Assembly: GCA_030295235.1 (NCBI GenBank)
Contig: AP026134.1
Coordinates: forward strand, 248,001 to 312,000
Source: Fistulifera solaris
Lineage: Eukaryota
Direction: 5' to 3'
DNA length: 64,000 nucleotides
The position numbers and the translations under genes are program-made. A model generated the notes under the pieces. The model was not told the origin of the DNA. It saw only the letters and a program-made list of their open reading frames with translations, and made no database searches. Positions 1,041-57,824 of this stretch are shown here, piece after piece. How positions within the stretch are numbered: the first letter of the stretch is position 1; the number at the start of each line of letters is the position of its first letter.

Positions 1041-1804
1041 ATGATACATGTCGTTAACGATTGGTTGGGAACATTCGTTTTCTGGTCGGTAATTCTCGTG
1101 GTTTGTTACATTGTCCTAGCTTTGCTCATACACATTCCCAGTCTTCTTCGTCCTACTATCATTCATTATCCGTGGCCTTTGCTGAAAGAAAAAGAAGATG
1201 TTAAGGTCGCATTGGCGGGTTCCTACAATCCACCGCATCGGGGACATTTGGCGATGCTTCTGTATCTTTCGAAACGATACACTCACGTCCTGGCCATCCT
1301 GGGAGTCAATCCTGTCAAACAGTATCAGGTTTCTCCCGAAACACGGGCGGCCTTGTTACGAAAAATGTTGCAGGAGGCGGGCGTGACGAATGTACAAGTA
1401 CAAGGTACGTTACGACCGTATGTGTGCGGAACAAAGCCGGAATGGAGGACTCAACCGACGTGTGTATCCTTCCAGTGGTACAAGGATACATATGGCGAAG
1501 TGCCAAACGACAAGGCGTCCGTCTCTTCTTTCGCGGCATTCGTAGTTGGTCACAGGATGGTCGGGAGGAACGACACTTACAGTTTTTGAATATTTGGGGA
1601 CCCTTGTTGTACGGACCTTTGGTTTGGCCCATTCCGACCCGTTATTTGGAAGGGAAACCGGAATACAATCACGTGAGTTCGACGTTGGTTCGTGACATTT
1701 TGGGGCGGAATGATGATTCGCAAAAGCCAGCGTTGCAACAGTTGGTACCCGACTGTGTAGTTCATGACATTACGCGCTTGTATGGTTCTATCAAAGAATC
1801 TTAG
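1041..1804 (+). CDS. coaD: Phosphopantetheine adenylyltransferase-like (HxGH nucleotidyltransferase) with N-terminal TM; intron 1405-1475
   Basis: GSYNPPHRGHL, FFRGIRS and HVSSTLVR motifs; 71-nt GT..AG intron joins ORFs 921-1589 and 1424-1804. Confidence 0.8.
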
Positions 1805-2057
1805 ACAGCAACAACCACACACAACAAAAACGGCGATTCATGCGAGGGAGAGACTTGTGTTGGCATGAAAAAGATGACGATCATCCAGCGCTTTCCGTTA
1901 CTCTTGATGCACTTTGCCTCTACTATTGCGATTTTACTATGCAACAAAGGATGGAGTGTATGATTGTATTCTTTGACTAACAGATGGAGATCTTGATCCA
2001 ACAATTAACGCCCGACCGCAATCTATATTTTTAAGTCACACACAGAATGCCGTTTCA

Positions 2058-3315
2058 TCATTCATTCGCCGTGTCAGCAAGGTTTCGAGAACTTTGCAAT
2101 TGCTGCAGCACTGCTTTGTTCTGGTAGATTTTTCGCGCGGCTCCCAAATCTTCCCAGAAGACCTAACAAAGCAACCAAACTTAGACAAACACACAAAAAA
2201 GTCAACGATGCCGATTCAGGAACGTACCTTCTTTTCGATCGGAAGCACTTCTTTCATTCGAAACATGAGCATACTTGAAATCCAAATTAATATAATGTTT
2301 GCAACTGTTATGCCTGTATAGAACGAACGGAAATTTGAGAAAGCATTCATCCGAAAACGTGATACCTGGTAAGAAGTGTATTTCACTGACCTATAGAAAT
2401 TCGACCCATCTGCCTGTAGTCATCGTAATCATAAACTTCACCATATCCTGGAATATTATTTCGAATTTCGGCTTCTTCTTCGGTAAGGACCAGGACATCC
2501 GAATGACGCGTAAAGATATAAGCGACCCAAATGATACCTGTGTTGACTGCTGGCGGCAACAAAGACGCGGAAATGGCCACTCCTACCAAGGAACTTGTGT
2601 TGTCATCGAGAAGAGATACTGCCACGCCCAAGCCGGAAAAGAACGCCACCGGACAGGCTACATAGAGATTGATTACATCACCTCGCGATTCCATTTCCGG
2701 CGTGGGCCAATCATCGGACAAACTCGTTGGACCCGTGACCAATCCAATCAGAGCACCCATGACAATGCAGATCACTAGCGAAGCGAACTCCACCACCATA
2801 GCTCGCTTCACCATGGCCCAATCACGAATGGTGGTTCCGTAGGCCAGTCCGATGACTGGGCCCATAATCGGCGACACCAACATGGACGCCAGTATCGTGG
2901 CGTTGCTGTTGGATACCAATCCGAGCCCCGCCAAAACGGAAGCCACCAATAGGAGGACATTGTAGTTGAAATTCATATAAAATCCTTCCTTAATTTTTTC
3001 GTGCACTGATGAAGTGTAATAGACGGAATTAGGAGCGGACAAAAAACAAATGGAACAGAATTAGATGACCGTCAGAAACAACGGAGTGCATTATGACTGA
3101 AACTACGAAATGAGAAACGTACTCTCTCGAACGCGGCTCACTTGCTCGGTTGAGAGCTCCGCCACTTCATTGTCATCCACAAATATTTTCACAATGTCAC
3201 GAAACTTGACGTTGCCCGTCAGGCTGCTCACTTGTTCTTTTACAGCTTCAATGTGATCACTGTGAATGGGTGCGACCAGTCCGGGTCGACTTGCTGCGGA
3301 TTCCGACACGCTCAT
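2058..3315 (-). CDS. DUF389-family multi-pass membrane protein, copy 1 (4 exons)
   Basis: ASMLVSPIMGP and LVGVAISASLLPPAVNTG motifs; GT-AG introns (e.g. 3006-3122); stop TGA at 2058-2060. Confidence 0.75.
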
Positions 3316-3868
3316 ATTCGTAGATATAATGCGTAACGCGGTCTGTGGCTTTCAAAAACACAGGAAGACTAACAACGGCTAAAACAAATCGGTTTTTTTG
3401 TTCGTCATAACATGCGCGATATGGATTTTGGAAACCAGTGATCGCCGAAGGCACTATCACCTTTGGAGTAGCACGTCTGCTTTGGAGAACTTGTGAAGAA
3501 CTAGAGCCCAATGCTCACTATCTGGAGAATAGTACGTGGTTGACACCATTGGTCAACTGGCCCAGAAATGTTGAACAACAAAAGAGAAACCACAACCAAC
3601 AGCCAGAGGGCAACATGCAACATTGTAAAGGAGACCGATTTGAAGTAAAACAATGTTCACCTTCTTCATGAAAACACGCGGTGAATGTCCGAGAAAAATA
3701 GAGAGATGAACGTTCAAACTATAAAGAATCACGTGTCAACGGTATGACACCTGTAACTTTCGCGTCAGTTGGTCTATCCGTTTTTCCAAGTATCTTCAGA
3801 CCAATATACATCTTCTCTAACCGATATCATTATCTAGTCGCAAAATTTGGTGATGTTGAATCTTTTTT

Positions 3869-5167
3869 TCAGAGTCCATCATCACACATCCGAGCGAGAT
3901 TGTTAGATGACCGAACTGGCTGCAGGACCGCCCGATTCTGGTAAATTTTTCGCGCGGCTCCCAAATCCTCCCAAAAGATCTGAAGAAAAGTGAGATTGGA
4001 TATGCGTGGGTCGATAGGGACGAAAAAAGCATTACAAAGCGTACCCTCTTTTCAACGGGAAGTACCTCTTTCATGCGAAACATGATCATGCTCGAAATCC
4101 ACACCAAGATTACGTTTGCTACCGTTATGCCTGTATTTCCGACCAGATCCGTGCATGATGAGTTTCAATATAGTAGCAAAACAGATATGCCCATGGAATC
4201 CTTACCTATGGATGTACGTCCCGCCTGCCGGTAATCATCAAAATCGGGAGGATAGACGTACTCGGATAAGGCGTCATTTTCCGCAACTTCTGCCGGGAGA
4301 ACGGCTCTCGAATGGCGCGTAAAAATATGAGCCACCCAAATGATACCCGTATTCACAGCGGGCGGCAGTAAAGACGCAGAAATAGCCACTCCTACCAACG
4401 AACTTGTGTTGTCGTCGAGAAGAGATACGGCGACGCCTAGACCCGAAAAGAACGCGACGGGACAGGAAATGTATAAATTGACAATATCACCTCGAGATTC
4501 CATTTCCGGAGTAGGCCAATCATCGGATAAACTTGTCGGGCCCGTGACCAATCCGATCAAAGCCCCGATGGCAATGCAGGCAAATATGGAAATGAGCTCC
4601 GTCATCAGAGCTCGCTTTACCATGGACCAATCACGAATGGTGGCTCCGTACGCCAGACCAATCACGGGACCCATGATGGGAGAGACCAGCATTGACGCGA
4701 TCACTGTAGCATTGCTGTTGGAAACGAGACCGAGACCAGCCAGAATGGAAGCTACGACCAGCAGAACGTTGTAATTAAAGTTCATGCGAAAGCCGTATCG
4801 TATTTTTTCATGCACTGTACGATAAACAAGATGAAAACAGCGAATCATGCATAAGGTTAGGCACCACCGGGTACAAAATTTGCCCATTAAAGACGGGAGG
4901 CGTCACAATCGTCGTTTGCAAGCGCCAAAAGAACTTACTTTCGCGAATCCGTTTGACTTGCTCGGCGGACAACTCTGCAATCTCCGTGCAATCTACAAAT
5001 ATTTTCACAAAATCACTCAACTTGACATTGCCTATCAAGCCAGTGGTTTCCTCGACAGGCTCAATGTGGTGCGTTTCGACAGGTTTTACCTGTGCTGCTT
5101 TCGGTAACAGCACTGCGGGCATCTCCCCCGCTGATTCGACGGAAACTCCATTGTCTGAAGCACTCAT
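3869..5167 (-). CDS. DUF389-family multi-pass membrane protein, copy 2 (tandem paralog, 4 exons)
   Basis: Near-identical protein core to copy 1 with matching intron positions; stop TGA at 3869-3871. Confidence 0.75.
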
Positions 5168-18252: not shown

Positions 18253-18586
18253 CGTCTATTTTTACAAATGCAAGCTGCGTAAAATGAAATCGGCTTCCGA
18301 AGGTTTTCTCAGTCGGGACAAATTCCATCCGTGTTAGATGCAAAATGTGACCAGAAAAATGTTTCACAAGAGCTGTGAGTCCTGAGAAGCCAAGAGAATT
18401 TTCTATTCAACGCATGGCGTGCATCGCGCATCGCGGATGGGTCTTTAAAAAATATCAAGGAAAAAAATCGAATGTCTTACCGTTATTGCTAGTCGAGTAA
18501 AATTATGACGCTACAAGGGAGCTGGCTTTGGATGATGGAAAAGAGAGTGCAAGTACAGTACGGTACCGTACCATGCATGTAACGGA

Positions 18587-18665
18587 GGAACGGCGTTAAA
18601 ATTCTGCCTCGTCGTAGACGCTACGTAGAATCTTGTATTTGGAGGCAGAATTTTGACGTCCTTCC
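18587..18665. repeat. ~80-bp palindromic interspersed repeat, copy 1
   Basis: CGTTAAAATTCTGCCTC...GAGGCAGAATTTTGACG; near-identical to 57227-57388. Confidence 0.9.
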
Positions 18666-20439: not shown

Positions 20440-21783
20440 TTAGTTCGTCGGATACAGGTTCTGATTTCGGATCACTTCGTACAACTCTTGACGCCCCGAG
20501 ATTAAGGCTGGCTCACCCTTCTTCTTGGCGTATTCGGCGCATTCTTCGAGCGTGGCTTCACCATCTTCAATCTTTTGTCCCATATCCTCTGACCACGTCA
20601 AATAACGCTGCTGCAGCATTTGCCGCAACACACCTTGTTCGTGCATAGCGGCCGCCTTGCGCAATCCCAACGCGTAACAATCCATACTACCAATGTGTGC
20701 ATAGAACAAATCGATCGGATCCACCGATTCGCGTCGGACTTTGGCATCAAAATTGAGACCACCACTCAATCCACCTTGTCGAATGACCACACCCATAATA
20801 GCCGCTGTTTCTTGTACATTCATGGGAAACAAATCCACATCCCAACCCAGAATCGGATCGCCCGTATTGCAATCGATACTCCCGAGCATGTTGTAGGCAC
20901 TTGCCATGGCAATATCGTGTTCCGACGAATGACCCGCCAAGGTGGTATGATTGGGTTCGATATTGAGTTGAAAGTGTTCCGATAAACCGTATTCATGCAA
21001 GAATGCCATGGCCGTTTGCGCATCATAATCGTACTGGTGTTTCGTGGGTTCCCGGGGTTTGGGTTCCAACAAGAATTTAGCCGTATAACCTTTCTTTTGC
21101 TTGTACGCCACAGCCATGCGGTACATGGCGGCCATATGATCGCATTCCTTCTTGAGATCGGTATTCAACAACGTTTGGTAACCTTCTCGTCCACCCCAAA
21201 AAACGTGATGTGATCCTTTCAATTTGTGAATCAGATCCATCATGGTTTGAATTTGTGCCGCCGCATAACAAAAGACGTGTACATCGGGATTGGTCATGGC
21301 ACCGTTCATGTAACGCGGATTCGTAAACAAATTTTGTGTCCCCCACAAAAGTTGGACGCCGGTTTGTTGTTGTTTTTCCAACAAGTAGTCTCCGATCATG
21401 GCAAGATTATGTTGAAATTCTTCCAAGGAATTCCCCGTAGGAGCCACGTCAATATCGTGAAAGGTATAATATTCGACACCGAGTTTGGTCAAGAATTCAA
21501 AGAGCACATCAATGCGTCGTTTCGCCAAGGCCAGAGGATCTAGTAGTGCCGCATCATCTTCTTCTTCTTCTTCTTCCCACGGTCTCTGTAAAGTCTTGTC
21601 ACCAAATGGATCGGATCCTCCACCACCCACGAGAGTATGCCAGAAACACACACTGAATTTGAGCCATTCTTTCATGGGTTTTCCCAAAATCATTTCGTTC
21701 GCATTGTAATGACGAAATGATAAGGGATCTTGGGAATGCGGGCCTTGGTATACAATTTTGGGAGCGTTGAAAAAGTCTGTCAT
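20440..21783 (-). CDS. xylA: Xylose isomerase (class II), intronless
   Basis: FSVCFWHT, FHDIDVAP, VFWGGREGY, LEPKPREP, NIEPNH and GGLNFDAK motifs. Confidence 0.96.
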   Translation of the reverse strand: MTDFFNAPKIVYQGPHSQDPLSFRHYNANEMILGKPMKEWLKFSVCFWHTLVGGGGSDPFGDKTLQRPWEEEEEEDDAALLDPLALAKRRIDVLFEFLTKLGVEYYTFHDIDVAPTGNSLEEFQHNLAMIGDYLLEKQQQTGVQLLWGTQNLFTNPRYMNGAMTNPDVHVFCYAAAQIQTMMDLIHKLKGSHHVFWGGREGYQTLLNTDLKKECDHMAAMYRMAVAYKQKKGYTAKFLLEPKPREPTKHQYDYDAQTAMAFLHEYGLSEHFQLNIEPNHTTLAGHSSEHDIAMASAYNMLGSIDCNTGDPILGWDVDLFPMNVQETAAIMGVVIRQGGLSGGLNFDAKVRRESVDPIDLFYAHIGSMDCYALGLRKAAAMHEQGVLRQMLQQRYLTWSEDMGQKIEDGEATLEECAEYAKKKGEPALISGRQELYEVIRNQNLYPTN

Positions 21784-43644: not shown

Positions 43645-45608
43645 ATGAAGGAATCCATGCAAATCTTCGATAACGATCTGAGAGAAGACTCTCGGGAATG
43701 GAAGGCGACGAAAGCTTGTCTCATATCGCATCTTCCCCGCTATCGCGCTATCTGGCTGGCCTACGCGAACCGTGAAGAAGTGATGGAGGAGAATGTGGCG
43801 TACGAAGCCGATGATGAAATGGTGGTGTGTTGTGACAAACAGAATTGTTCTTGCAAAATATCGTCTTTTCTTCCTCAAGAGTTGTTGGAAATTAAAGTTA
43901 CCAATCAAGAGAGTTCAGATGCCCTGTCCGAGTCGGAATGGGACGAGGCATCGCAAGCTAGCGCGGCTGCAGAATCATCATCATCATCGAGTTCGGAGGA
44001 TACGGAATCGTCGGGAGCCAGCACGTGTGTGGCATTTGACGTGTCATTTCTTCCTTCACCGACTGGATCATCTCCTACGAATGACAATTTGTCACAATCG
44101 AGACCAACAAAAACTGACGTTCTGGAGCTACTGGATTCTACTAGCCTTAGTGACGATTGCAGCGACAAAGAAAATGCTTTCGCCGGCAATCCATTGAATC
44201 TTTCACAAAAACCAGAGATTATCGTTATCGACTCCGACGATGAACTTGAACCAGTTTTACAACCATCGAAGTATGTGCAAGGCGACAACGCACAGCAAGG
44301 CACCGAGCGAAGGGCTCATCATCAACAGTCTTCCTATGACAGCCGCTGCAGTGAGATCGAATACGAATCGCTGAAGAAAATGAATAAAAGATGGGGACCC
44401 AACGTCGCACACGCGTTGTAGTTGAATCTTCGGACGACGATAGTACTTCGTCATCGGCATTGAAACATTCGATTACCAGAAAGTCTATGGGGAAAAATCA
44501 ATTCATTATTGACAGCGATAATGAGGATGAGGATGATATCCGTCTAGATACTGAAGACGAAAGGCAAGCGAATAAGTTACTGGGAAAAATCAAGGCGTTG
44601 AGCATACGGAAGTCAAAGGAGAACGACGATACGTTCCGTAAAAAATCGCTTCGTAAAATGAAATATGATCTCGTCGATAGTGACGATGAAGGAGCAGATT
44701 CCTCGAGTAAAACTTCACACGAGGAGACCCGTCGAGACACCGTTCGGAAAGCAACGGAAACCAAAGTCCGCCGAAGGAAAGATTCGTTTATTGTCGATTC
44801 GGATGAGGAGGATCAGAGTGAAGACAGCGACGTATTCAGTTACGGTAATGACAAACCCTCATCTTTTGGTGTTCGACACGACAAAGATCGTAAACTGAAC
44901 AACCGCGATAAAATGACCAAATCTACTTTTCGTCGCACGCGGGAACAGTTAGCTCAGGAATTTTTCGTACAGTTCGATAAAAAGGTGTTTGATGGGAAAT
45001 TGTCGGCAGACACGAAGGTCGTCTGGTCAAACAAGCTGCGAACAACGGCTGGTTTAACTCGCCTGAAAGCACAGCGTCAGGGCAAAGAAATCATCGGTCG
45101 TTCTGCCGTGGTTGAGTTAAGCACAAAAGTGCTCGAAGATAGTCAACGACTTCGTGCGACGTTAATGCATGAGCTTTGTCACGCCGCCCAATGGTTGGAA
45201 GATGGCGTTTCGAAACCACCCCACGGTGAGGTCTTCAAGAAATGGGCGAGACTGGCAACGCGTCGGATGCCAGATATTCCTGTTACCGTCAAACACGACT
45301 ATGAGATCTCGTTCAAATATACCTGGAAGTGTGTGCAGTGCAATGGTTTGCTGAAACGACACAGTCGCAGTGTCGATGTTCAAAAGCACGTCTGCGGACG
45401 CTGCCGGGGTCGACTCGTCGAAGTAGAGGCCGATGGAACAAAGAAAGCGAGTGCTCCCGCGCGTCCCCCTTCCGCTTACAATCAGTTTATCAAAGACAAC
45501 TCCGCTAACGTTCGACGCGAGCTGGAGAAAAGGCAAACGGAGAAAGTCACGCAAGCGCAAGTCTTGAAGCATTGTGCTCGACTTTGGAAGGAACAAAGTC
45601 AGAGCTAA
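43645..45608 (+). CDS. SprT-like metalloprotease with acidic N-terminus and C-terminal HMG-box-like region (GCNA/ACRC-like); frameshift ~44390
   Basis: WSNKLRTTAG, TLMHELCHAA (HExxH), HGEVFKKW, CxxC..CGRC and SAYNQFIKDN. Confidence 0.85.
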
Positions 45609-45804: not shown

Positions 45805-46604
45805 TTAATCGACTCGTTGCTCCTCCATATCCGTGGCACGAACCGCCGTTCCTTTTAGGACATTGGCTTGGGTGACCGTGACGGTACCATCCGGATTGTG
45901 AGTTCGTTCGTAGGTCACTTCTTGGGTTTCCGGAGGCGGACGACGATCCCGCACGGGGGCACCGGAAATCAACATGGTCGCTCCCGCGAGGAACCACAAG
46001 ACAATCCCAAACACATTCGCCGTCGCGCCACTGTTCCACTGACAACTACCGTAATCACCTTCCCTGAAGATTGGCGAGTTGTTCGAGCACAATTCACTGC
46101 GGAGCATGAAAAACGTGAGTCCCTGAAAGAGCGGTAAAATCACCATATAAAGACCCGCGAGTTGGTTCCAACTTGTTTGGCTCAGTCGATGACAGAGTGA
46201 ACCAAATATCGCGGCGAGAATGGCAAATCCACCAATCAGGAGTGTGAGGCACCCAAACGCCCGGGCCGTCTTCCATTCCGCGTCATAATTTAGGTCGTCA
46301 TGATAAAAGCAACCCACTTTCGTGCGATAATTGTTGTTGGGGAATTCTTCGACATAATATTGTTTCTCCGTAAAGAGACTGAATTCTACCGTGGGTAAAC
46401 TGGAGTCGTTCATGGGCTTGATTTGCACTGATTCGCAATAAAATGTAAAGAGAGCGGAGCAACCAAATGCTGCCACCGCCAGTAGAATGGGGAAACTGAA
46501 CAAAAAAAGAAATTAGTGAAAGTAAGGAACGAATCCAGAACGCTTTATTGCTTTCGGATCGCATCACGATTGACTTACAATGTCTTGAAGACTGCCGAGA
46601 ACAT
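45805..46604 (-). CDS. Four-TM claudin-like membrane protein, copy 1 (1 intron)
   Basis: WKTARAFG, LFQGLTF and CQWNSG; short first exon followed by GTAAGT. Confidence 0.7.
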
Positions 46605-47053: not shown

Positions 47054-47831
47054 TCAATTGGACGGATGTTCCTCCGTGTCGGCGCCGGGGGCGGTTCCTT
47101 TCACAACATCCACTTCATTGACACCTCCGTTTTCCGTTTGCTCGTAGGTGACTTCATGCGTTGCAGCTGGCTTATTGGATGTCTCACGAACGGGCGCGCC
47201 CGCGAACAGCATGGCGGCACCCGCGAGGAACCAGAGGATAACACCACACACATTCGCCGTCGAGCCACTATTCCACTGACAGCCACCGTAATCACCTTCC
47301 ATAAAATCAAAGATTTGAGAATTTTCCGAGCAAAGTTCGCTTTGCAACATTAAAAAGGTCAGTCCTTGGAATAACGGTAGAATGACCAGATACAGCCCCG
47401 CCATGGCTTTCCACATCGAGTCACTGATGGGATAACAAAACGGCCCAAAGATCGATGCAATAATGGCCAGTCCACCGAGAACGATCGTCATGATGCCAAA
47501 CGCGCGGGCCGTTTTCCATTTCGAGTCGAACGGATAGTCTTCATCGAAGTAAAAGCAACCCGTCTTGACTTTGTAGTTGTTATCGGGGAACTCCTGAATG
47601 TAATATCGTTTGGTGGTGTAGAGACCGAATTCCACCGTCGGCAAACTCGCGTCGGTTATCGACTCGACTTGGACCGACTCGCAGAAAAAGGTAAAGAGAG
47701 CCGAACACGTGCAGGCGGCGACAGCGAAAATGGCCGGAAAACTACCACGGGGGTGAGCGAATAATCGAATGATACTGCACTTTGACTCGCGACAGCTCTC
47801 TCACTTACACTACCTTGGCGTCCGAACACAT
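47054..47831 (-). CDS. Four-TM claudin-like membrane protein, copy 2 (tandem paralog)
   Basis: High similarity to 45805-46604 with the same intron position. Confidence 0.7.
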
Positions 47832-48518
47832 GATTGTTCTATTTGTAGAATGGTAGATGGATGATTGACTTGCGTTTGTTTGCTTTTTTTATCTTGCTTC
47901 GTTGCTTCTTATTGTCATGAAAGGCATCGACGAGCGGCGAATAACCGCGAAAAGGAACAGTACAACCAGGTACTACGTACCAAAGGAGCACTTTTGCTTG
48001 TTCAGGGTACCTGGTACCCCCAAAATGGGTACCGGATACGACACTCTCACAAGCCAGTCTTCCCGTATTATGACCTAGACAGTAGGTGAAAAATTAGCCC
48101 CTAGAGCGTTGAAAAGTCCTTTACTCAACGGAACTTCGTCCGTTCAACCCCGGTCTCCCGTGACTTGATGGGGTACCTCGCCGAGAATAACACGAGGTAC
48201 CCCCGTTGAAAGTTGGAAATGTCAGCTCCCCCACTTTCACAAAGGTTATTGGCTTAGCGTGCGCCTTCCGAGGTGTCTGTTTTCTGCTTTCTGATTTAGT
48301 CCAGTCATTGGTCTTGACTTTGTAGAAGTGATGCAGTCGTTAACATCTTTTGAAAAATGCAAAAGTTATTACTTTCAGTTTACAAAGTACATTTGCTTCG
48401 AGTTGGTAACCAAAAATGTTTGCGTCTGTGCTGGATCATGAACCGGCGCACAACCATGGTAAAACTTGTACGCCGGCTTGTAAGCTGGTCAGTTTTTAGT
48501 CCAGTCTTGAGTGACTTA

Positions 48519-48852
48519 CCCAGATTTTCTGTAAGAATGAAAATACCCATTGTCCAGAATTTCTGACACACTCGCTTTTCTGCATGAATGATGTCCACTT
48601 GCTTCATAGTTCCTGGTGTACCCAGATATTCAGATTACAGCAGATACATAATTTCTGGACCAACCGAGATTTTCTGTATTACGGAGTAAGGAATTACGAC
48701 TGGTCCAGATTTTCTGGATCGCCCCAGATTTTCTGTATGAATGAAAATCACCTTCCGCCAATTTCTGTATCGCCCCATATTTCGCATATTTACGAAATAC
48801 AACTGGTCCGGAATACCTAAAATGCCCAGATTTAGAACGCTACGCCAGATTA
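48519..48852. repeat. Cluster of degenerate CCAGATTTTCTG(G) repeats
   Basis: Roughly 8-10 variant copies, including a ~30-bp near-duplicate at 48519 and 48723. Confidence 0.7.
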
Positions 48853-49040
48853 GGCACCGCCCTACCACCCATTCCGATGATGCTTACGCCGGCACACGAT
48901 CCTCTGTAATTTCAGTCCAGTCACAGCTTTCTGCATTTCGACGAGTCCCAAATGTCCTATCTACAAGTTTACATTGCATAAAATTTGGTACAATTCAAAT
49001 AATTCAACGAACTTGCTAAATCCTTATTGACTAATACCAT

Positions 49041-49495
49041 CTAAATTTCCGTTTCCCAACCTATCAACTCATTTTCCTGAATGGCTATCAATTTGCAGAC
49101 TACCGACCCCTTCTCTTCATCGTCCTTAAAATCTTTAGCATATTCACGCAACCTCTTTAGGTTCTGCTTTGCCATTTGTTCAGCAATGATGAGGTTTTTC
49201 CCAGCAATTTCATGTTTGGTCCCCTTTCTGGTCGCTTTAGGTGCTTCTTTGGAGTTATCCTTACGAAGTTGCGCATAGTTGACTTTTCTCTCATCACCCC
49301 ATTCCAATCCCGACTTTGGGACAATCCATTCCGCAAACTTGTCATCAATTGATCTAAGATGATCTCTGATTCGTTGACGTGCGCCTTAGTTCTGACCTTT
49401 AAAGTTTGAGAATCCTACATCCCTCCATTACTTCCACGAAAACCTTCTTGTCAACTTTTCTTATTTTAATGACTCCTTCCCAATCTATTGTCATT
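49041..49495 (-). pseudogene. Decayed paralog of cargo ORF 50526-51682
   Basis: GQN*GARQRIRDHLRS...WIVPKSGLEWGDE...AKQNLKRL aligns by eye with GPNAKNQRAQIRRHYRD...FVVPQSGLERGEK...ALQNLEKM; in-frame TAA present. Confidence 0.7.
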
Positions 49496-49589
49496 GTGGA
49501 TTCTAAAACATGGTATCATTCAATTGTTGCGCCAATTTTTGGAAGCCCGGTACTTGTAACGTATTCGAAAGGCCTGCTAGAGTGGTTCC

Positions 49590-50487
49590 ACCGGCTCATA
49601 CGCCGGCGTACAACCCAACCGGGTTACTTGTACGCCGGCGCATGCGCCGGTCCAACTTCCGTCCAGTCACGCCTAACGTGGTCAGCCTACGTTCATTAAG
49701 TGTCTGCTTGCAAGCTGGTACACCGCAATTTTTTTCCTCTAGCTTTGATCATTCGATTTCTGAATAGACAGTTATACTATTTGTGTTGCCACTACCCTCA
49801 AAGCGGGTTTCAGTTTCCTCCTCTAATTTTTCACGTTCTAGCACGCTTCAACCGGCTCATACTCCGGCGTACAACCCAACCGGGTTACTTGTACGCCGGC
49901 GCATGCGCCGGTCCAACTTCCGTCCAGTCACGCCTAAAGTGGTCAGCCTACGTTCATTAAGTGTCTGCTTGCAAGCTGGTACACCGCAATTTTTTCCCTC
50001 TAGCTTTGATCATTCGATTTCTGAATAGACAGTTATACTATTTGTGTTGCCACTACCCTCAAAGCGGGTTTCAGTTTCCTCCTCTAATTTTTCACGTTCT
50101 AGCACGCTTCAACCGGCTCATACTCCGGCGTACAACCCAACCGGGTTACTTGTACGCCGGCGCATGCGCCGGTCCAACTTCCGTCCAGTCACGCCTAAAG
50201 TGGTCAGCCTACGTTCATTAAGTGTCTGCTTGCAAGCTGGTACACCGCAATTTTTTCCCTCTAGCTTTGATCATTCGATTTCTGAATAGACAGTTATACT
50301 ATTTGTGTTGCCACTACCCTCAAAGCGGGTTTCAGTTTCCTCCTCTAATTTTTCACGTTCTAGCACGCTTCAACCGGCTCATACTCCGGCGTACAACCCA
50401 ACCGGGTTACTTGTACGCCGGCGCATGCGCCGGTCCAACTTCCGTCCAGTCACGCCTAACGTGGTCAGCCTACGTTCATTTAGTGTC
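49590..50487. repeat. 261-bp tandem repeat, ~3.4 near-identical units, each with a hairpin and a 16-bp palindrome
   Basis: Near-identical ORF-track entries start every 261 bp (49700, 49961, 50222); CCGGCGCATGCGCCGG in each unit. Confidence 0.97.
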
Positions 50488-50525
50488 GTTCAAAATAGTA
50501 TTATAATGGTTCGTTAGCCATGTCT

Positions 50526-51682
50526 TTAAAGTTGGTCATCTGCCATTTCCGCATTACCCTCATAAGATCCCCCGATCTTTGCCAGATCGGCCCATTGTCC
50601 CTCAATGCATTGTTCGAGTATCACTTTTCTGTTGTCCCCTTCCTCACACTCCGCTAGTTCCTTTTTCATCTTTTCCAAATTTTGAAGCGCAAGGTAAATA
50701 GACATAGTTACTGAGTGAAACAAATCATGATACACAGATGTCTCGGACTGAACCAAGTTCTTCAAATCCATTGCTGTAATAGGACCTTTTTCACCCCTCT
50801 CAAGACCCGATTGTGGCACAACAAACAATGGGTGGGTTCTGGCAATATCTCTGTAATGGCGCCGAATCTGTGCTCGCTGGTTCTTAGCATTAGGACCAGC
50901 CGGCAGATGCTTGTCGATGTCCACGAATCCGTACTTGTCTTCCTCCAACATTTTCGACGGATCAGTCTCATTTTCAAACTTGCCAACATTGAACGTCGTG
51001 TACTTTGCGGCCCACACCCCTTTAGAAATACACTCTGGGCATCGGCACAAGTAAATAGCCACATTCCCACTCACCCTCTTCAACAGCGGGTGGTTATTCT
51101 TAAAAAACTTAGCCGTGTTCTTAATGTCTCCTTTGTGATCAATTGTCTCAAGAAATTCTTCCGCCGACATTGCGTTGTCATTGGATTGCAGTTCCGCCAT
51201 AGCGTTGTCGATGATAAGTGCAATGCCTTTTTCCTGAACTTCTTCTTCAGCTGTGTCGATATTTGTGTAGCTGTCTCTGTCCGCAGCCGTGGTTTCCTTT
51301 TCGTTTTCGTTAGAATCAGCCAGCAAAGGCGGAGGCTGGGGACGACCTGTCGTGTCTTCCGTCGGGCTGCTGGCCATGTTGTTATTGTGAACGGAACGTG
51401 TTGGATTTCTCTTACCGTTCTCGTTTGTGCTTCTCGTTGTCTTTTTTCTTGTTTGCCGGTTTTGGCTCAACTGTCTTAGAAGCCATTATGTTTTGCTTTT
51501 CGGTTCTTGATTTTTCTTCATTAGATGCGTCGCCGTGGTTATTTCCCTGATTGGCTACCTGCGGAGTCGCACTAGCGTTGTTTTTCTTGCTCGTCGGCGT
51601 AATTTTTGCCTTTTTTTCGTGCTGGTTTTGCGGCATGTTTCTTGGAAGCAACCGCGGTTTGCGCCACGTTTCGTGTTTTCAT
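50526..51682 (-). CDS. Cargo protein of unknown function (basic N-terminus, CxCxxC motif); two A-run frameshifts in the 5' part
   Basis: ATG at 51682 (MKTRNVAQ...) joins ORFs 51412-51651 and 50526-51470 if one base is restored in each of two A-runs; LCRCPEC. Confidence 0.7.
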
Positions 51683-52399
51683 TATTTTTATAAGTTTATT
51701 AACTAATATCCGTACTGTGCATTACAATCATTTGCTATTGCTCATTATTGCCAAGTCTAGAGACATAATAGCGACGTTGTGTGTTGTGTGCGGCGGGCGT
51801 CGATGAACATATACGGCAGAAGGCCAGAGTATCCGGTCCCGTCACGACTGAAAACGGAGCATGATCCGGCGTACAACACTAGTGGCTAATCTGTACGCGA
51901 ATAACGTTCACCCGAATAACAGTTCTCCCATCTTCTGTCAGAAGACACACCTTGCTACAAAGATCGCAACCAAGAAATCGTCGTCCGTTGCGAGCATCAT
52001 CATTTTCAATGAATGCTTTCAACATGGCTTCATATTCTTGCGATTTTGCTGATCGATATTTGTTTAGAAACGGATTGTGTTACGAAGCTGTTGGAGAGGG
52101 GGCGAGAAAGGCTAGGAAGAGGTCGAATGAAATACAATTATTTCTTTCTGATTTGTCGGCACGCCCAAAGTAATTTGCTGCTCTTACCATTTTGCATTTT
52201 TCAACAACCAAGGGCCAATCCACGAGCGAATCGCCTATAAATGCTACTATTCATCACTGTGGGTCTTATCTGGCACAACGGTAGAAAGGAGTTATAGAGG
52301 AACATTCCAATGTTTGATGCAGTTTCCGGTAAGTGTCTTGATTGCGATTATATTGTTTTCCGATTCAGACGTTCATCGCTGACACTGTGGAACTCATCT

Positions 52400-53460
52400 C
52401 AATAAAGAATCATAATTACTACTTGCGTGAGGAAAGGTCCAAACCAAAAATATGTTCAAAATCGGTCGAGCAACTGCATTCTCTGTTGCGATTCCGTTGA
52501 GCGGAGTCGCGTCTCGGCAACAAGCATCGTCGCTAGCCCTATCCCGAAGAACAATTAGCCACCAAGTATTGATTACAGGCCACTTATACTCAGCGGATAA
52601 TGGTCCAGACTGGACCCACGGCGGAGCGCGGTTTCCGGAGAAGCTTTGCAAGTTGACTTGAGAGGTAACAGGTAAGTTCGTGGTGTTCGGACCGGAGACG
52701 GTTTTCTCATGTCAACTCGAGAAGCGACCCTAGTCTCGTGACAACAGACACTGCTCGACAATATGTTGTAAATTGGTCAATCTGCATCTAACTATTGTGA
52801 TTCTATTTCCAGTTTTGTGTTGCTTCGTGGTCATCGAGTCGACTGACACTATCACTCGATAATCGACTTCATCAGGGAATTTGCTACGTGCGCATGACAG
52901 TGATCGACGAACTTGTTCTCGTGGGATTTCGAAGCCCGCGCTGACGAAATCTCGTTAGGTAAGATAACAAAGACAATGTGTTGTAACTTGTGCACTCTGC
53001 TGTTACCCTTCCGATTCCATTGTCAGTTCAGTGTTGATCGGCGGCCCGTATTTTGCTTCGTAACGACAAATTGTGCTTGACGAACGAATCTCAATCCTTG
53101 TCATTTGGTATCCTAACAAGGTAAGATAACAATGGCATTCTATTGTGTTTGAAGCAAGCTGCATCTGCTCTTCGTCGTTCTGATTCTATTGTCAATACAG
53201 TTTTGCTCGGCGATCCGATGTCTTGCTCCTTGACGACAGATCACAATCGACGAACTTGTTCTCGTGCGATTCTCGATCCTTGTGTTTTCGTATCCTTATT
53301 AGGTAAGATAACAATGGCATTCTATTGTGTTTCGAGCGAGCTCCATCTAACGATTGTGATTCTATTTGAAGTTTCGTGTCCTACACGGTCATTGCGGCGG
53401 CGGCACGTATCACTCGTCAATCAACTCCCTGGGCGAATTTCCTGCGTGAGCATCAATATT
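52400..53460. repeat. Diverged copy of the 354-bp unit (~52400-52690) plus a mosaic of ~180-bp degenerate repeats (~52760-53460)
   Basis: CCACGGCG..G.GCGGT..CCGGAGAAGCTTTG shared with the 354-bp unit; AGGTAAGATAACAA x3; TCGACGAACTTGTTCTCGTG x2. Confidence 0.75.
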
Positions 53461-53569
53461 CTTGTTTGATATGATAAGGAGCGTAATGTCTGAAAAGTTG
53501 GTGAAGCTGCTCTGCGTCGTTCCGATTCTACCGTCAATTATGTTTTGCTGGGCGGTCCGATGTGTCGTG

Positions 53570-54362
53570 ACAACCAATATCTTCGCCCACCGCGGTCTAT
53601 ATAAGCCGCCCAATATAGATTACAGACGGTTTAGACTATGCCGTGAACCGTTGAAACTAAGTCCACGGCGAAGTGCGGTCACCGGAGAAGCTTTGGTAAG
53701 TCGTCTCGAGAAGGTGCAGGCAAGGTTCGTGATAGTCGGAAATGCATGGTATCAACAAATATTAAGTGCTCTAACCCTTTCGAATTCCACTGAATCGAAA
53801 GAGTGTATTACTAGCTGCGCTAGGAAAGATTCAAAACAGGAATCAGTTGAAATTTGGTCTAGCAAATGCATTTTCTGTTGAATTTCTGTCGCACGGCGTT
53901 CTTTTCGTAGCATCGCGGCAGCCAATATCTTTGCCCATCGCAGTCCATATACCTATATGCCGCCCAATATAGATTACAGACGGTTTAGACTACGCCGTGA
54001 ACCGTTGAAACTAAGTCCACGGCGAAGTGCGGTCACCGGAGAAGCTTTGGTAAGTCGTCTCGAGAAGGTGCAGGCAAGGTTCGTGATAGTCGGAAATGCA
54101 TGGTATCAACAAATATTAAGTGCTCTAACCCTTTCGAATTCCACTGAATCGAAAGAGTGTATTACTAGCTGCGCTAGGAAAGATTCAAAACAGGAATCAG
54201 TTGAAATTTGGTCTAGCAAATGCATTTTCTGTTGAATTTCTGTCACACGGCGTTCTTTTCGTAGCATCGCGGCAACCAATATCTTCGCCCATCGCAGTCC
54301 ATATACCTATATGCCGCCCAATATAGATTACAGACGGTTTAGACTACGCCGTGAACCGTTGA
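53570..54362. repeat. 354-bp tandem repeat, ~2.2 units
   Basis: GCCGCCCAATATAGATTACAGACGG at 53605, 53959 and 54313. Confidence 0.97.
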
Positions 54363-54570
54363 CTGGCTACTCAGTGAGATTTTCAAATTGACGATTCGTC
54401 AATAATTGGTAAGTGATACGATCACCGCACAAGCTGTTACGATTCTGTCTCCAGTTCTGTGTGTCTTGGCAGTCAGAACGGCGGGTTAATCCAACTACAT
54501 TTGTGTAATAAGGTAAGTTGCACGTAAGTTGGTTACTAATTAAATGCTCCAAGAGCCTGAGGAGTTGCCT

Positions 54571-56721
54571 TTATTTCTTGGCGCCACATATTTGCGATGC
54601 CTTTCCACTGCAGCAGTTGCCTCTGAAATGGATTTTGAAGTCTTTCCATTTCGCACAAAAAGAAGTAATGTCTCCTTGGTGGTGATTTCGAAAGCAATTC
54701 AGTGCAGGCTGGAGACAGGTATAGTAGAATTTCTTGGCGGAGGCCGTGAACTTGATAACAGGTTGCCCTTGTTCGTTGAGAAGGATAGATTGCTCGAGCT
54801 CAAGAAGCAGCATTACCTTGTCCTTGGTTTCATTTTGACTTTTGACAGCCAATCTACCAGGTAAGTCATTTTCTTCGGTGCGCTGTCTCTTGTTAGCCAG
54901 TTGGAGACTATGACCATCCAACGATCTTTTCATGTTTTTGACTGGCACAGAGAAGGAAAATGAATTTGAGTTAGAATCATGGTGATTACCATGAGCGATT
55001 GGGATCTCATTTTGGTTGCCATGGACGGACTTCAATCTCCTCTCAGCTTTGGCAGTTGCGTCTTCTGTGACGAATCGAATAAGCTGATGAAGATCCGGAA
55101 CAGCTCGATCAGGTAAAGTGGATGCAAAAGCTTTTACTTGCTGATCAACATCACTGCAGCGGGGCTTAAACTGACGGGCCATCTTCATCAGAAACGGAAC
55201 ATCTTTAGATCTCGGGTGATTAGGTCCAAGGTTCATGTCTTCTTCAACAAACATGACTGCTACATCATAGAGACTCTTACGATATAGGGGATTCTCATCA
55301 TTCAAGCGTGCCAAATTCTGGGGTTCCTCACAATGAATGTGGCGCCATTTGCTAACCATGTTTTCCTCGTTGATGTAATCCTTCGAAGTATATGCATCTT
55401 TGGCATATTTTACAGCCTGCTCGTCCGTTTCGTGTCGAGCATCTTGTCGAAGGCCTTGAGGTTTCGCGTCGCCCCAGATCGCTAAAAGGTAGGCAGTCTT
55501 GCGGAACATGTGTGTGCCGACTTTAAGGGCATTCTCACCAAATGGAACATACGTAAATAATGCCTGCGTGAAAAAGGTTTTGAAGGAACCATATTTCTCT
55601 TGGGATGTAAAGTTACCGTCGGAAGGAGGTTTCTTGAGATCATCTCTTACGGGAAACAGATTACCGGATTTGATACCGGCAACGTAGATGTACACCAAAA
55701 GCGCACGAATGGGGCACAACTCGGGGTATACGTGGTCAGCTTTCATGCACATGTAGGCCTTCTTCTTGTCAGTCTTTCCGATGACCCACAGACAAAGTGA
55801 ATCAACCGCACCGTCTGTCTTCTTAAAAAGATCGCTGTAGAAATTGTCATGGGAGATAGAAAGTAACTCGTCTGCACGAAGAAAGAGACGACAGCACATT
55901 ATTATCATGACCCAAAGAGAAAGACCATAGAGCCCAATGTCGCGACATTTGTTAGTAAGACCATCATAAAGTTTGCGCAAGTCCATAGGAAATAATTGCG
56001 AGCATCCCTTCACCTGATACGAAGGATCGTTAAGGCATTTCTTCGCGTTGGTCCACTTGTTATGTGTAGTCGGATTGCCTTCCCGACAAATTTGAGGTTT
56101 TTTGTAGTGGCGACGGCACCCGTCACTATCTCCACTAGTCATGCATTGTTCACAATAGTCTTTGTACTGAGCTTTGTCGTGGCCGCGTGCAATGTGGACC
56201 GCAGAAACGGCAGCAGCGAGCTGTTCGGCCTTCTGTGGTGATCCCCAGTCACCCGAGCAAAAGATTTTTTCGCCGTGGATGTCAGAGAGTATAACATCAG
56301 GATTAATAGTCTCGTCTGTATCATAAGGAATAAGGGTCAATGGTGTAGAAGGGTCACACCGCTTGTATCGTAAGAAAGCAACAAGACTCTCGACCTTAAT
56401 AGATGGGATGTGACTATTATCTGGGCTGAGATCTTTCACGAGCATCAGCATGGATTCGTAGTCACCAGTCCAAGCTAAGAAGCGCCATAACTGCCTGAGT
56501 ATATTAAGGTAAACCTTTGCTGTACTCGGTTTGATGTGCTGGCCATTAAATATTTCAAAACTCTTCGCATCGAAGTCGCACCAACGAGAATGATCAGGCA
56601 TGTCGATGTTTAAGAGATAGGCCTGGTTCTTAACACCTCTTTCAATCGCCGACTGGATAGGTGGAGGAAGCCGGCTCTTAACACAGATCCGGCTTTTCTG
56701 ATCTTCACTATCTGTCGACAT
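54571..56721 (-). CDS. Tyrosine recombinase (lambda-integrase superfamily), Crypton-like, 716 aa, intronless
   Basis: Catalytic set in order: R (LFLRADELL), K (GKTD), CPIRAL box, HxxR (THMFRKT), H (DARH), Y (AVKY); N-terminal STAKVY core-binding helix; CxxC..C..H motif. Confidence 0.9.
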   Translation of the reverse strand: MSTDSEDQKSRICVKSRLPPPIQSAIERGVKNQAYLLNIDMPDHSRWCDFDAKSFEIFNGQHIKPSTAKVYLNILRQLWRFLAWTGDYESMLMLVKDLSPDNSHIPSIKVESLVAFLRYKRCDPSTPLTLIPYDTDETINPDVILSDIHGEKIFCSGDWGSPQKAEQLAAAVSAVHIARGHDKAQYKDYCEQCMTSGDSDGCRRHYKKPQICREGNPTTHNKWTNAKKCLNDPSYQVKGCSQLFPMDLRKLYDGLTNKCRDIGLYGLSLWVMIIMCCRLFLRADELLSISHDNFYSDLFKKTDGAVDSLCLWVIGKTDKKKAYMCMKADHVYPELCPIRALLVYIYVAGIKSGNLFPVRDDLKKPPSDGNFTSQEKYGSFKTFFTQALFTYVPFGENALKVGTHMFRKTAYLLAIWGDAKPQGLRQDARHETDEQAVKYAKDAYTSKDYINEENMVSKWRHIHCEEPQNLARLNDENPLYRKSLYDVAVMFVEEDMNLGPNHPRSKDVPFLMKMARQFKPRCSDVDQQVKAFASTLPDRAVPDLHQLIRFVTEDATAKAERRLKSVHGNQNEIPIAHGNHHDSNSNSFSFSVPVKNMKRSLDGHSLQLANKRQRTEENDLPGRLAVKSQNETKDKVMLLLELEQSILLNEQGQPVIKFTASAKKFYYTCLQPALNCFRNHHQGDITSFCAKWKDFKIHFRGNCCSGKASQICGAKK

Positions 56722-56931
56722 TCGTATCTTCGGAATACTTTTAAAACAAATGAGGGAAGATGGTACGGAACTAAAAATAATGAGCGTACTGCGTGGGGTA
56801 GAAAAATGGAGGGACGAAAAAATAAGTGCGAAGGGGAGGGCGGAATTACTTGCAACGGACGCAATTGGGGAATAGTGTAGGAAGGCCGACTCTCAAGGGA
56901 ATGGCAATTAGGTGGTATCCTGGGTACCCGC

Positions 56932-56997
56932 AGGTACCCGCCTAAATACCAAACGAGGTACCCACCTAAATACCAAACGAGGTACCCACCTAAATAC
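56932..56997. repeat. 24-bp tandem repeat (AGGTACCCACCTAAATACCAAACG) x2.75 upstream of the recombinase
   Basis: Seen directly; a partial inverted copy lies at ~56907-56930. Confidence 0.95.
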
Positions 56998-57226
56998 TTC
57001 AAAGTTTTACCTTTTTCCCCCTAATAATAGAAGAGAAGGTATCTTTCACCAAGCTCAAGGATCTACTATCTACTTGATCTTTACGGCCTAAAAAGAAGCA
57101 GTTGGCAATGAGAACCCTACAACGCCAAGCGCAAGATTTCGTGATGATCGGAGTCGCGAATGTTCTTCATTCTCACAATGATACGAGGTGACACACTACT
57201 CTACGTATTTTGTGTAGCAAACGGGC

Positions 57227-57388
57227 AACGGCGTTAAAATTCTGCCTCGTCGTAGACGCTGCGTAGAATCTTGTACTGAGAGGCAGAATTTTAACGTCCT
57301 TCCCGGGGAACAGCGTTAAAATTCTGCCTCGTCGTAGACGCGACGTAGAATCTTGTACTGGGAGGCAGAATTTTAACGTCCTTCCCGG
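57227..57388. repeat. ~80-bp palindromic interspersed repeat, copies 2 and 3 in tandem (82-bp period)
   Basis: 17-bp arms CGTTAAAATTCTGCCTC / GAGGCAGAATTTTAACG in each copy. Confidence 0.92.
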
Positions 57389-57824
57389 ATGTTCTGTCTT
57401 ATGTTGGATGGTGCGTGTTGCATGGCAAATACTGTTTGAAGGATTTGTCGACGTCACATTGTCCTTCATGATTCATGTTTGAGGCGATGCCAGTCCCTAA
57501 ACCTCAACCCTCATTATCTCGTCAATCGTGCCTTTGCTAAGGCTTTGAGCGAGAGCGAGGAGCAGTGGAAACCTAAAAATTAACTGCTCATGTTTTTCAC
57601 CGGAAACCATAAGTATTGAGTTGTCCTTCGCTTTCAGCTATATACATGATTGACAATCCATGACTCTTATTTGCGTTGCTGTCGAATTCGATTATGTCTT
57701 CAAGCTTCGGGGTTCATTGCAAGTTTATAAAGCTAGATCTACTTTCAAGTTCTAACTAAAATGCACATCATGATTTCTACTATGCCTAATGCAGCAGAAA
57801 TCGATCCTCAATCTCAAATTTTGT

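Follow-up and report, generated by a model that had tools for sequence, protein, structure and literature searches.

A tyrosine recombinase gene followed by a row of similar palindromes in the diatom Fistulifera solaris raises the question of whether an integron-like cassette array can exist in a eukaryote. The locus is an apparently Crypton-like element of about 9.3 kb, lying in the 64-kb stretch of contig AP026134.1 that was analysed here (the window). Six imperfect palindromes with conserved arms and variable centres are found downstream of the recombinase gene, and an earlier note on this DNA had taken them for possible recombination sites by which the element would add, drop or amplify modules, in the manner of an integron. 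Our analysis does not support an integron cassette array. We favour, with moderate confidence, the view that the palindromes are copies of one block standing at intergenic boundaries, which would have been duplicated with an accessory gene and kept as an element of double-stranded DNA, and not integron-like recombination sites. The element and its recombinase gene are the following:

47837..57123, no strand, insertion, Crypton-like element (outer limits only), 9287 bp; a partner contig joins 47836 to 57124
54571..56721, minus strand, tyrosine recombinase gene, intact, 716 aa

All six sites of the earlier note were located, and they stand far above chance. The arm pattern CCGGCGYACAAC, allowing at most one mismatch, has 12 matches in the window where 0.48 are expected, and none of 100 shuffles reaches 12. 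Six left arms on the plus strand and five right arms on the minus strand account for 11 of these 12 matches; the twelfth is isolated, at 21351, outside the element. The sites start at 48443 (A), 49603, 49864, 50125 and 50386 (B to E) and 51866 (F), all in the same orientation, and the distances from one to the next are 1160, three times 261, and 1480 bp, as had been described. The sites, and the boxes that accompany them, are the following:

48443..48476, plus strand, palindrome site A; 12-nt spacer between 11-nt arms, whose single mismatch is a G-T wobble on the minus strand
48885..48924, plus strand, site G, a decayed copy; right arm and GTCCAGTCAC box, about 115 nt past the stop codon of the accessory-gene paralogue
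49590..49651, plus strand, site B, first array unit; 62-bp imperfect palindrome, the best-preserved form
49851..49912, plus strand, site C, array copy of the palindrome
50112..50173, plus strand, site D, array copy of the palindrome
50373..50434, plus strand, site E, final copy in the array; the core arms stop at 50421, which is 63 nt past the accessory-gene poly(A) site
51866..51898, plus strand, site F; 7-bp stem, right side truncated, about 185 nt upstream of the accessory-gene ATG
48499..48506, plus strand, GTCCAGTC box, 23 nt right of site A
48915, 49661, 49922, 50183 and 50444, plus strand, further GTCCAGTC boxes, 23-25 nt right of G and B to E
48299, plus strand, an extra GTCCAGTC box

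The count of six needs correction in two ways. Only three palindrome sites are independent (A, the array B to E, and F), B to E being one site in tandem copies, and a seventh, decayed copy (G) had been missed. G is identical to the array block at 29 of 40 positions, a score reached by none of 500 shuffles. Palindromes of comparable kind number ten in the window, five in the element and five outside, and 0 to 5 were found in each of ten whole-window shuffles.

The similarity between the sites runs past the arms. It defines a block of about 130 bp (128 nt in the array) that consists of a GC-rich imperfect palindrome, with arms of 11-12 bp round a spacer of 12-15 nt, then 23 nt, and then the GTCCAGTC box. 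This box occurs eight times in the 9.3-kb element and twice in the other 54.7 kb of the window. The blocks are located at gene boundaries, those of the accessory gene and of its decayed copy, and in similar placement: G stands about 115 nt after the stop codon of the paralogue, and the arms of E about 105 nt after that of the accessory ("cargo") gene. The features concerned are the following:

50526..51682, minus strand, accessory gene, an expressed orphan of 384 aa
50484..50486, minus strand, poly(A) site of the accessory mRNA; stretches of 20-24 T as loose ends before 50486 (run X3) and 50484 (run X4), and a contig of run X2 starts at 50484
49041..49385, minus strand, decayed or truncated paralogue of the accessory gene, found by tblastn

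Expression and copy number were judged from public contigs, compared over 47500-57600. X1 is a DNA run; X2 to X4 are small runs, not registered as RNA, which we treated as RNA from their behaviour (the poly(T) loose ends). As contigs, these data break in the array, drop rare forms and give no proof of silence where RNA contigs are missing. The accessory protein is 100% identical to a hypothetical protein of Fistulifera solaris (P0005, NCBI), in agreement with the eukaryotic host of the earlier note, which is a diatom. In the window the 384-aa protein spans three frames, with shifts near 51611 and 51442, and DNA and RNA contigs are each one base shorter at 51442 and 51611. Since the contigs are one base short precisely where the protein shifts frame, the gene runs from 51682 to 50526, which sets the distance of F from its ATG, and both positions are probably single-base errors in the window sequence. 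RNA contigs of X2 to X4 cover 50484-51648 of the gene at a depth of 30-50, against 0-6 on the recombinase region. Their poly(T) loose ends indicate that the mRNA is polyadenylated at about 50485, which coincides with the end of the block homology (50487) and lies 63 nt before the core of palindrome E. The accessory protein belongs to no Pfam family, has no relatives among proteins of 30-496 aa, and its look-alikes in the Atlas are all under a useful score; its single-sequence AlphaFold2 model is unusable, with a predicted local distance difference test (pLDDT) value of 43.5. As to the paralogue of the cargo frame, that claim comes down to one tblastn match within the window (49379-49263, 36% of 39 aa, E 0.003), which a local alignment extends weakly. 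No DNA similarity is left between the two genes. No RNA contig lies on the paralogue, which is not evidence of silence.

The modules between sites B and E have another origin:

49586..50487, no strand, 261-bp tandem array (Tandem Repeats Finder), 3.5 units, 99% matches; unit composed of the 128-nt block and 133 nt
53571..54362, no strand, second internal tandem array, 354 bp in 2.3 units, 96%, without the palindrome; a diverged copy at 52553-52648

The 261-bp units carry no gene. The sites do stand at the borders of gene-sized units, as had been proposed, but three of the five modules are gene-less repeats. When the units are aligned, unit 1 is distinct left of the palindrome and unit 4 is distinct right of it, and units 2 and 3 are the same as each other, with the left side of unit 4 and the base of unit 1 at column 122. 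This pattern fits the product expected from one unequal exchange between the neighbouring blocks B and E, with a further duplication afterwards. The point of exchange falls between columns 26 and 122 of the unit; as this interval is about 100 nt wide and has the palindrome inside, homologous and site-specific exchange would look the same. The array resembles minisatellites produced by unequal crossing-over in its 3.5 near-identical units with hybrid middle ones and in having a second array, of 354 bp, beside it, and differs from them in that its unit holds a 62-bp palindrome with diverged copies at three further places. As the 354-bp array lacks the palindrome, arrays form in this element without it. 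The block has been copied within one element, partly by unequal crossing-over.

Two further repeat families were observed in the element. The 354-bp array and diverged copies about 1 kb away make up a family at 52415-54362, one copy of which has a 15-bp perfect palindrome, GGTCCAGACTGGACC, that includes the box word GTCCAG. Between G and A, at 48511-48847, lies a family of CCAGATTTTCTG-type units, which the DNA run shows at a depth of about 210 with numerous variant joints; it is probably a later insertion or a satellite.

In the alignment the arms of the block are near-identical in sequence between the independent sites, while the genes that they flank are no longer similar as DNA and keep an identity of 36% over 39 aa, which suggests a constraint on the arms. 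The spacers measure 12, 14 and 15 nt, in the range that had been given, and their sequence differs among the three independent sites; each holds, as also described, an inner palindrome of 8-9 bp (ACCATGGT, AACCGGGTT and CACTAGTG). The chance of finding an inner palindrome of half-length at least 4 in all three is 1.65e-4 under a model of independent, identically distributed bases, the feature having been chosen post hoc. The inner palindromes of A and F lie off-centre against the left arm, with no room for a loop. Off-centre 8-9-mers, two of them without loop room, are better explained by recognition of double-stranded DNA than by a folded strand. The hairpin character of the sites is in fact uneven. 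The array palindrome (62 bp, 79% self-reverse-complementary, 49590-49651) folds strongly as a single strand, at -28.8 kcal/mol on the plus and -31.9 kcal/mol on the minus strand (z -8.3 and -9.1), but the folds of A and F are weak (z -1.6 to -2.9), hardly better than those of shuffles. In every fold the stem is continuous and free of bulged bases, its mismatches being 1x1. F has, as noted before, a shortened right arm.

We hypothesize that duplication of the accessory gene took the block along, and that the block may have been retained for a role as double-stranded DNA at gene boundaries. It would be a putative binding site of a dimeric protein (the recombinase, the accessory protein or a host factor), in line with the protein-binding operators that the earlier note had named as an alternative, a putative 3'-end termination or insulation element, or both; serving as the recombination site of an integron-like cassette system would not be its role. 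Several observations weigh against this proposal. No comparable palindrome is found behind the stop codon of the recombinase gene, and the gene ends of the host in the window have no habitual palindromes, so that a terminator role would be specific to the element. Directly upstream of A and of F, as transcription runs, there is no live gene. The argument from arm conservation is partly circular, as the sites were found through their conserved arms. Finally, the common orientation, the arms of 11-12 bp and the nearness to a recombinase gene are also expected of recombination sites, and the palindrome falls inside the crossover interval of the array, leaving room for a site-specific origin.

These last points call for a closer look at the recombinase. 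The earlier note had placed a tyrosine recombinase upstream of the sites, and the gene read on the minus strand from 56721 to 54571 is a genuine one. When 31 relatives are aligned, R282, K316, R407 (in H-x-x-R), R429-H430 and Y439 show no or almost no variation, and the family has a conserved Cys-rich C-terminal stretch. The AlphaFold2 model reaches a pLDDT of 82. In a fold search its best match is Cre (E 1.6e-5, template modelling score by target 0.61-0.68), followed by XerH, lambda integrase and Ndc10; the entry 2a3v, an integron integrase, comes only at rank 41. The family is a large one of diatom type: at E<=1e-3, relatives comprise 1004 cluster representatives. The recombinase itself has no Pfam match, Phage_integrase included, and comparison of its sequence with the PDB gave nothing meaningful; five of the 31 relatives match NDC10_II, which has a recombinase-like fold. 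From the stop codon of the gene, the first palindrome (F) is 2.7 kb away. Low-depth RNA contigs (4-6) were seen on the gene at 55464-55957. One of them joins 55483 to 55572, with a shorter side of 20 nt, and the skipped part reads GT..AG on the plus strand, that is, antisense to the gene.

The limits of the element come from a partner contig of the DNA run X1 (about 93% similar to the left flank, at a depth of 20.3), which skips 9287 bases; the letters at its joint are not given. The X1 depth of 15-25 across the whole stretch with the element indicates a single copy, and the one genome copy was examined here. The element is thus present in the window and absent from a diverged partner, which could reflect insertion here or deletion in the partner. 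Fistulifera solaris is reportedly allopolyploid, being named so in the title of a paper (PMC5935921). No direct repeat is seen at 47836/47837 and 57123/57124, the ends being known only as outer limits from a contig of about 93% similarity. Inside these limits, by 130-370 bp, lie two clusters of another motif:

48005..48203, no strand, left subterminal GGGTACC cluster; includes a palindrome at 48170-48203 with 11-bp arms and a 12-nt spacer
56922..56987, no strand, right subterminal GGGTACC cluster; includes 24-bp direct repeats

Together they hold 10 of the 17 GGGTACC and all four GAGGTACCC of the window, and in a short-word comparison of the two element ends only GGTACC-type words are common to both. 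The clusters are candidate end sites of the element, more likely in this role than the palindromes. Of the 40 stop-to-stop frames of at least 70 aa in the element, 33 plus the two long ones were scanned, and none of these has a Pfam family; the five others are two duplicate repeat units and three frames that overlap the accessory gene. Neither another transposition enzyme nor a reverse transcriptase, RNase H or methyltransferase appeared in the scanned frames.

Relatives of the recombinase are encoded at 49 metagenome loci (176,046 bases), with protein identity of at most 47%; the search used an alignment of eight sequences, the one of 31 relatives being too diverse. These loci have no copy of the motif, no homologue of the cargo gene by tblastn, no non-coding similarity and no general family of repeated hairpins. 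On the longer contigs, the relatives lie among ordinary eukaryotic genes. GTACAAC/GTAC words occur there at 0.17 per kb against 0.11 in the background, and 6.4% of repeated 9-mers contain GTAC against 2.8%, though these k-mers are not independent; we take this as a weak lead only. Within 1 kb upstream of the recombinase gene, locus L009 has one palindrome with 11-12-bp arms twice (2684-2711 and 3502-3529), and at locus L003 an 11-mer recurs in both direct and inverted orientation (4400-4850); GTAC is part of several of these repeat motifs. Searched for more widely, the motif gave three matches in viral contigs and 46 scattered ones in prokaryote genomes, which is the level of chance (an estimated 28 or so per 596 Gb at equal base frequencies).

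The palindromes could still be sites of the element's own tyrosine recombinase, either double-stranded as lox or FRT, with spacers whose differences would keep A, B to E and F from recombining with one another, or folded as single strands as in integrons, so that modules would be added, dropped or amplified between like sites. We regard this as unlikely, though it has real points in its favour. An intact recombinase of Cre fold is encoded in the same element, and its region yields RNA at a low level; the sites all point the same way and stand at module borders; only the sites with identical spacers, B to E, form an array; and the distant relative L009 also has a palindrome with arms of this length twice upstream of its recombinase gene. 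The available text of PMC3212892 quotes inverted repeats of 11-13 bp round 6-8 bp for lox/FRT sites, and both the arms and the Cre-like fold agree with it. The spacers depart from it: they are variable, 12-15 nt long and hold an off-centre inner palindrome, and an accessory box lies 23 nt away. The ends of the element carry a different motif, one of its arrays lacks the palindrome, an mRNA of its own is made from the cargo gene, and both motif and cargo gene are missing from all 49 related loci, though these are distant. No contig joining two palindromes was found, a weak argument given that contigs drop rare forms. It is tempting to propose a special form of this mechanism, in which the arms bind the Crypton-type recombinase, the differing palindromic spacers make A, B to E and F mutually incompatible, modules move only through a partner with a like spacer, and the 261-bp array is the product; we consider it quite improbable.

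Within this explanation, a true integron-like mechanism seems to us very unlikely. The available parts of PMC8946536 describe an integron as an IntI-type integrase with an adjacent attI and a cassette promoter, and a cassette as a promoterless gene with one attC site. In the same text, attC sites are imperfect palindromes of little sequence conservation that fold from one strand, leaving a central spacer unpaired and some bases extrahelical, and whose terminal structure varies. Integron cassettes are excised and reordered, so that arrays vary from copy to copy or strain to strain, whereas the element here is single-copy in the DNA run. The locus does resemble integron arrays so described, in that a tyrosine recombinase gene lies beside imperfect palindromes of one orientation, with variable centres and gene-sized units. 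However, its arms are conserved in sequence, its stems are continuous, with neither unpaired central spacer nor extrahelical bases, and the folds of A and F are weak, all unlike attC in that description. In place of promoterless cassettes there are three gene-less minisatellite units, a unit with a decayed fragment, and a live gene with its own polyadenylated mRNA. The recombinase has no Phage_integrase match and its fold is closer to Cre than to IntI, no attI-like site or common promoter was recognised beside its gene, and the sites begin 2.7 kb from it. Literature searches on Cryptons, integrons and tyrosine-recombinase transposons brought up no eukaryotic integron-like or cassette system. 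The cassette array of the earlier note is therefore not upheld.

Less probable again than recombinase sites in general is that the palindromes are functionless leftovers of an internal segmental duplication, partly homogenised by gene conversion and expanded by slippage, an explanation that we regard as doubtful. Tandem arrays with diverged distant copies are general in the non-coding DNA of this element, G and the right side of F have already decayed, A and F are weak hairpins, and there is no conservation in relatives, all of which such leftovers would lead one to expect. Neutral decay, though, does not readily explain that both conserved stretches stay mutual reverse complements in three independent sites, when the surrounding DNA and genes have diverged past DNA recognition. 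Nor does it account for the inner palindrome kept in all three spacers, with the low chance probability given above, or for a box at a fixed 23-25 nt from the right arm.

The block might instead be a small non-autonomous palindromic element, foldback or similar to miniature inverted-repeat transposable elements (MITEs), inserted several times. Its similarity limits are fairly sharp, at about 128 nt, and the genome has other short palindromic repeats of high copy number, such as an 82-bp unit with a depth of 1400-3500. We give this possibility little credence: contigs over A and F have single-copy depth (15-17) with no pile-up at 90% likeness, the motif occurs in the window only inside the element, and all copies have a single orientation.

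That the palindromes act as RNA, as read-through hairpins that are cut or stall the polymerase, or as sources of small RNA, is very improbable. On the transcribed strand a palindrome does follow the poly(A) site at 63 nt. In A and B, the two mismatches of transition type give G-U pairs on the minus, sense strand, and this strand folds somewhat better (-11.6 against -9.3 and -31.9 against -28.8 kcal/mol), but two mismatches are insufficient for a statistic, two of the inner palindromes are unable to form a looped stem, no RNA contig covers any palindrome (contigs being unable to show absence), and no Rfam family matches, the sole sub-threshold match on the repeat being a group II intron fragment (E 0.68).

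The surroundings of the element are eukaryotic and diatom-like, the window having genes such as HSF, fasciclin, ankyrin-methyltransferase and similar. The 82-bp unit mentioned above is internally palindromic and MITE-like, and lies at 57222-57388 and 18584-18665; its depth was measured in the DNA run. The partner contig lacks 57176-57492, the stretch that holds it to the right of the element. On the left side, two tandem paralogous genes on the minus strand (45805-46512 and 47054-47800) share 70% DNA identity over 577 nt and have no Pfam family, and their neighbour at 44391-45608 encodes a SprT-like protease that has a zinc ribbon and matches the HMG box weakly, below threshold (E 0.0086). For the host gene at 47054-47800, all RNA contigs (47500-47741, depth 129-299) have the letters of the partner copy and not those of the window. 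Judging from contigs, expression may be lower for the host-gene copy whose 5' end has the element just upstream.

By its coding content, the element is recombinase-only and Crypton-like. In the available parts of PMC3212892, Cryptons are described as having a tyrosine recombinase with R-H-R-Y, terminal direct repeats of 4-6 bp and no conserved non-coding sequences and, there and in PMC13465315, as lacking terminal inverted repeats. The Crypton features that we tested and found are the R-H-R-Y recombinase and the lack of a reverse transcriptase or other transposase. As in Cryptons so described, the recombinase is the sole recognisable transposition enzyme, copy number is low, long terminal repeats are lacking and the host is a diatom. 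CryptonS, the stramenopile group, has a conserved C-terminal region, and most of its elements have TATGG termini, according to the accessible text of PMC3212892 (Kojima and Jurka 2011). A conserved C-terminal region, here Cys-rich, is found in our family too, and relatives match NDC10_II. This element departs from the published description of Cryptons by its conserved palindrome blocks in the interior, its GGGTACC clusters near the ends and its expressed accessory gene. DIRS and Ngaro elements, in the available text of PMC13465315, are likewise recombinase elements with non-coding repeats thought to serve recombination; our element differs from them in having no reverse transcriptase, RNase H or methyltransferase in the scanned frames, and short palindromes in place of split direct repeats or an internal complementary region.

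Cryptons rank with the least understood transposons of eukaryotes. Neither internal conserved palindrome blocks nor subterminal motif clusters are described for them in the available parts of PMC3212892 and PMC13465315, and the former states that Crypton transposition has never been studied. If the blocks are boundary or terminator elements, the finding would be of local interest only. If the palindromes were recombinase sites, a eukaryotic element would for the first time show a cassette-like arrangement; and if the arms bind the recombinase, the palindromes would be the first recognisable cis sites of a Crypton-type recombinase, in a eukaryotic, double-strand analogue of gene cassettes. The element offers candidate cis elements beside an intact recombinase, namely the block of palindrome and box and the GGGTACC clusters near both ends, and could thus provide a testable case for DNA recognition and gene organisation in Cryptons.

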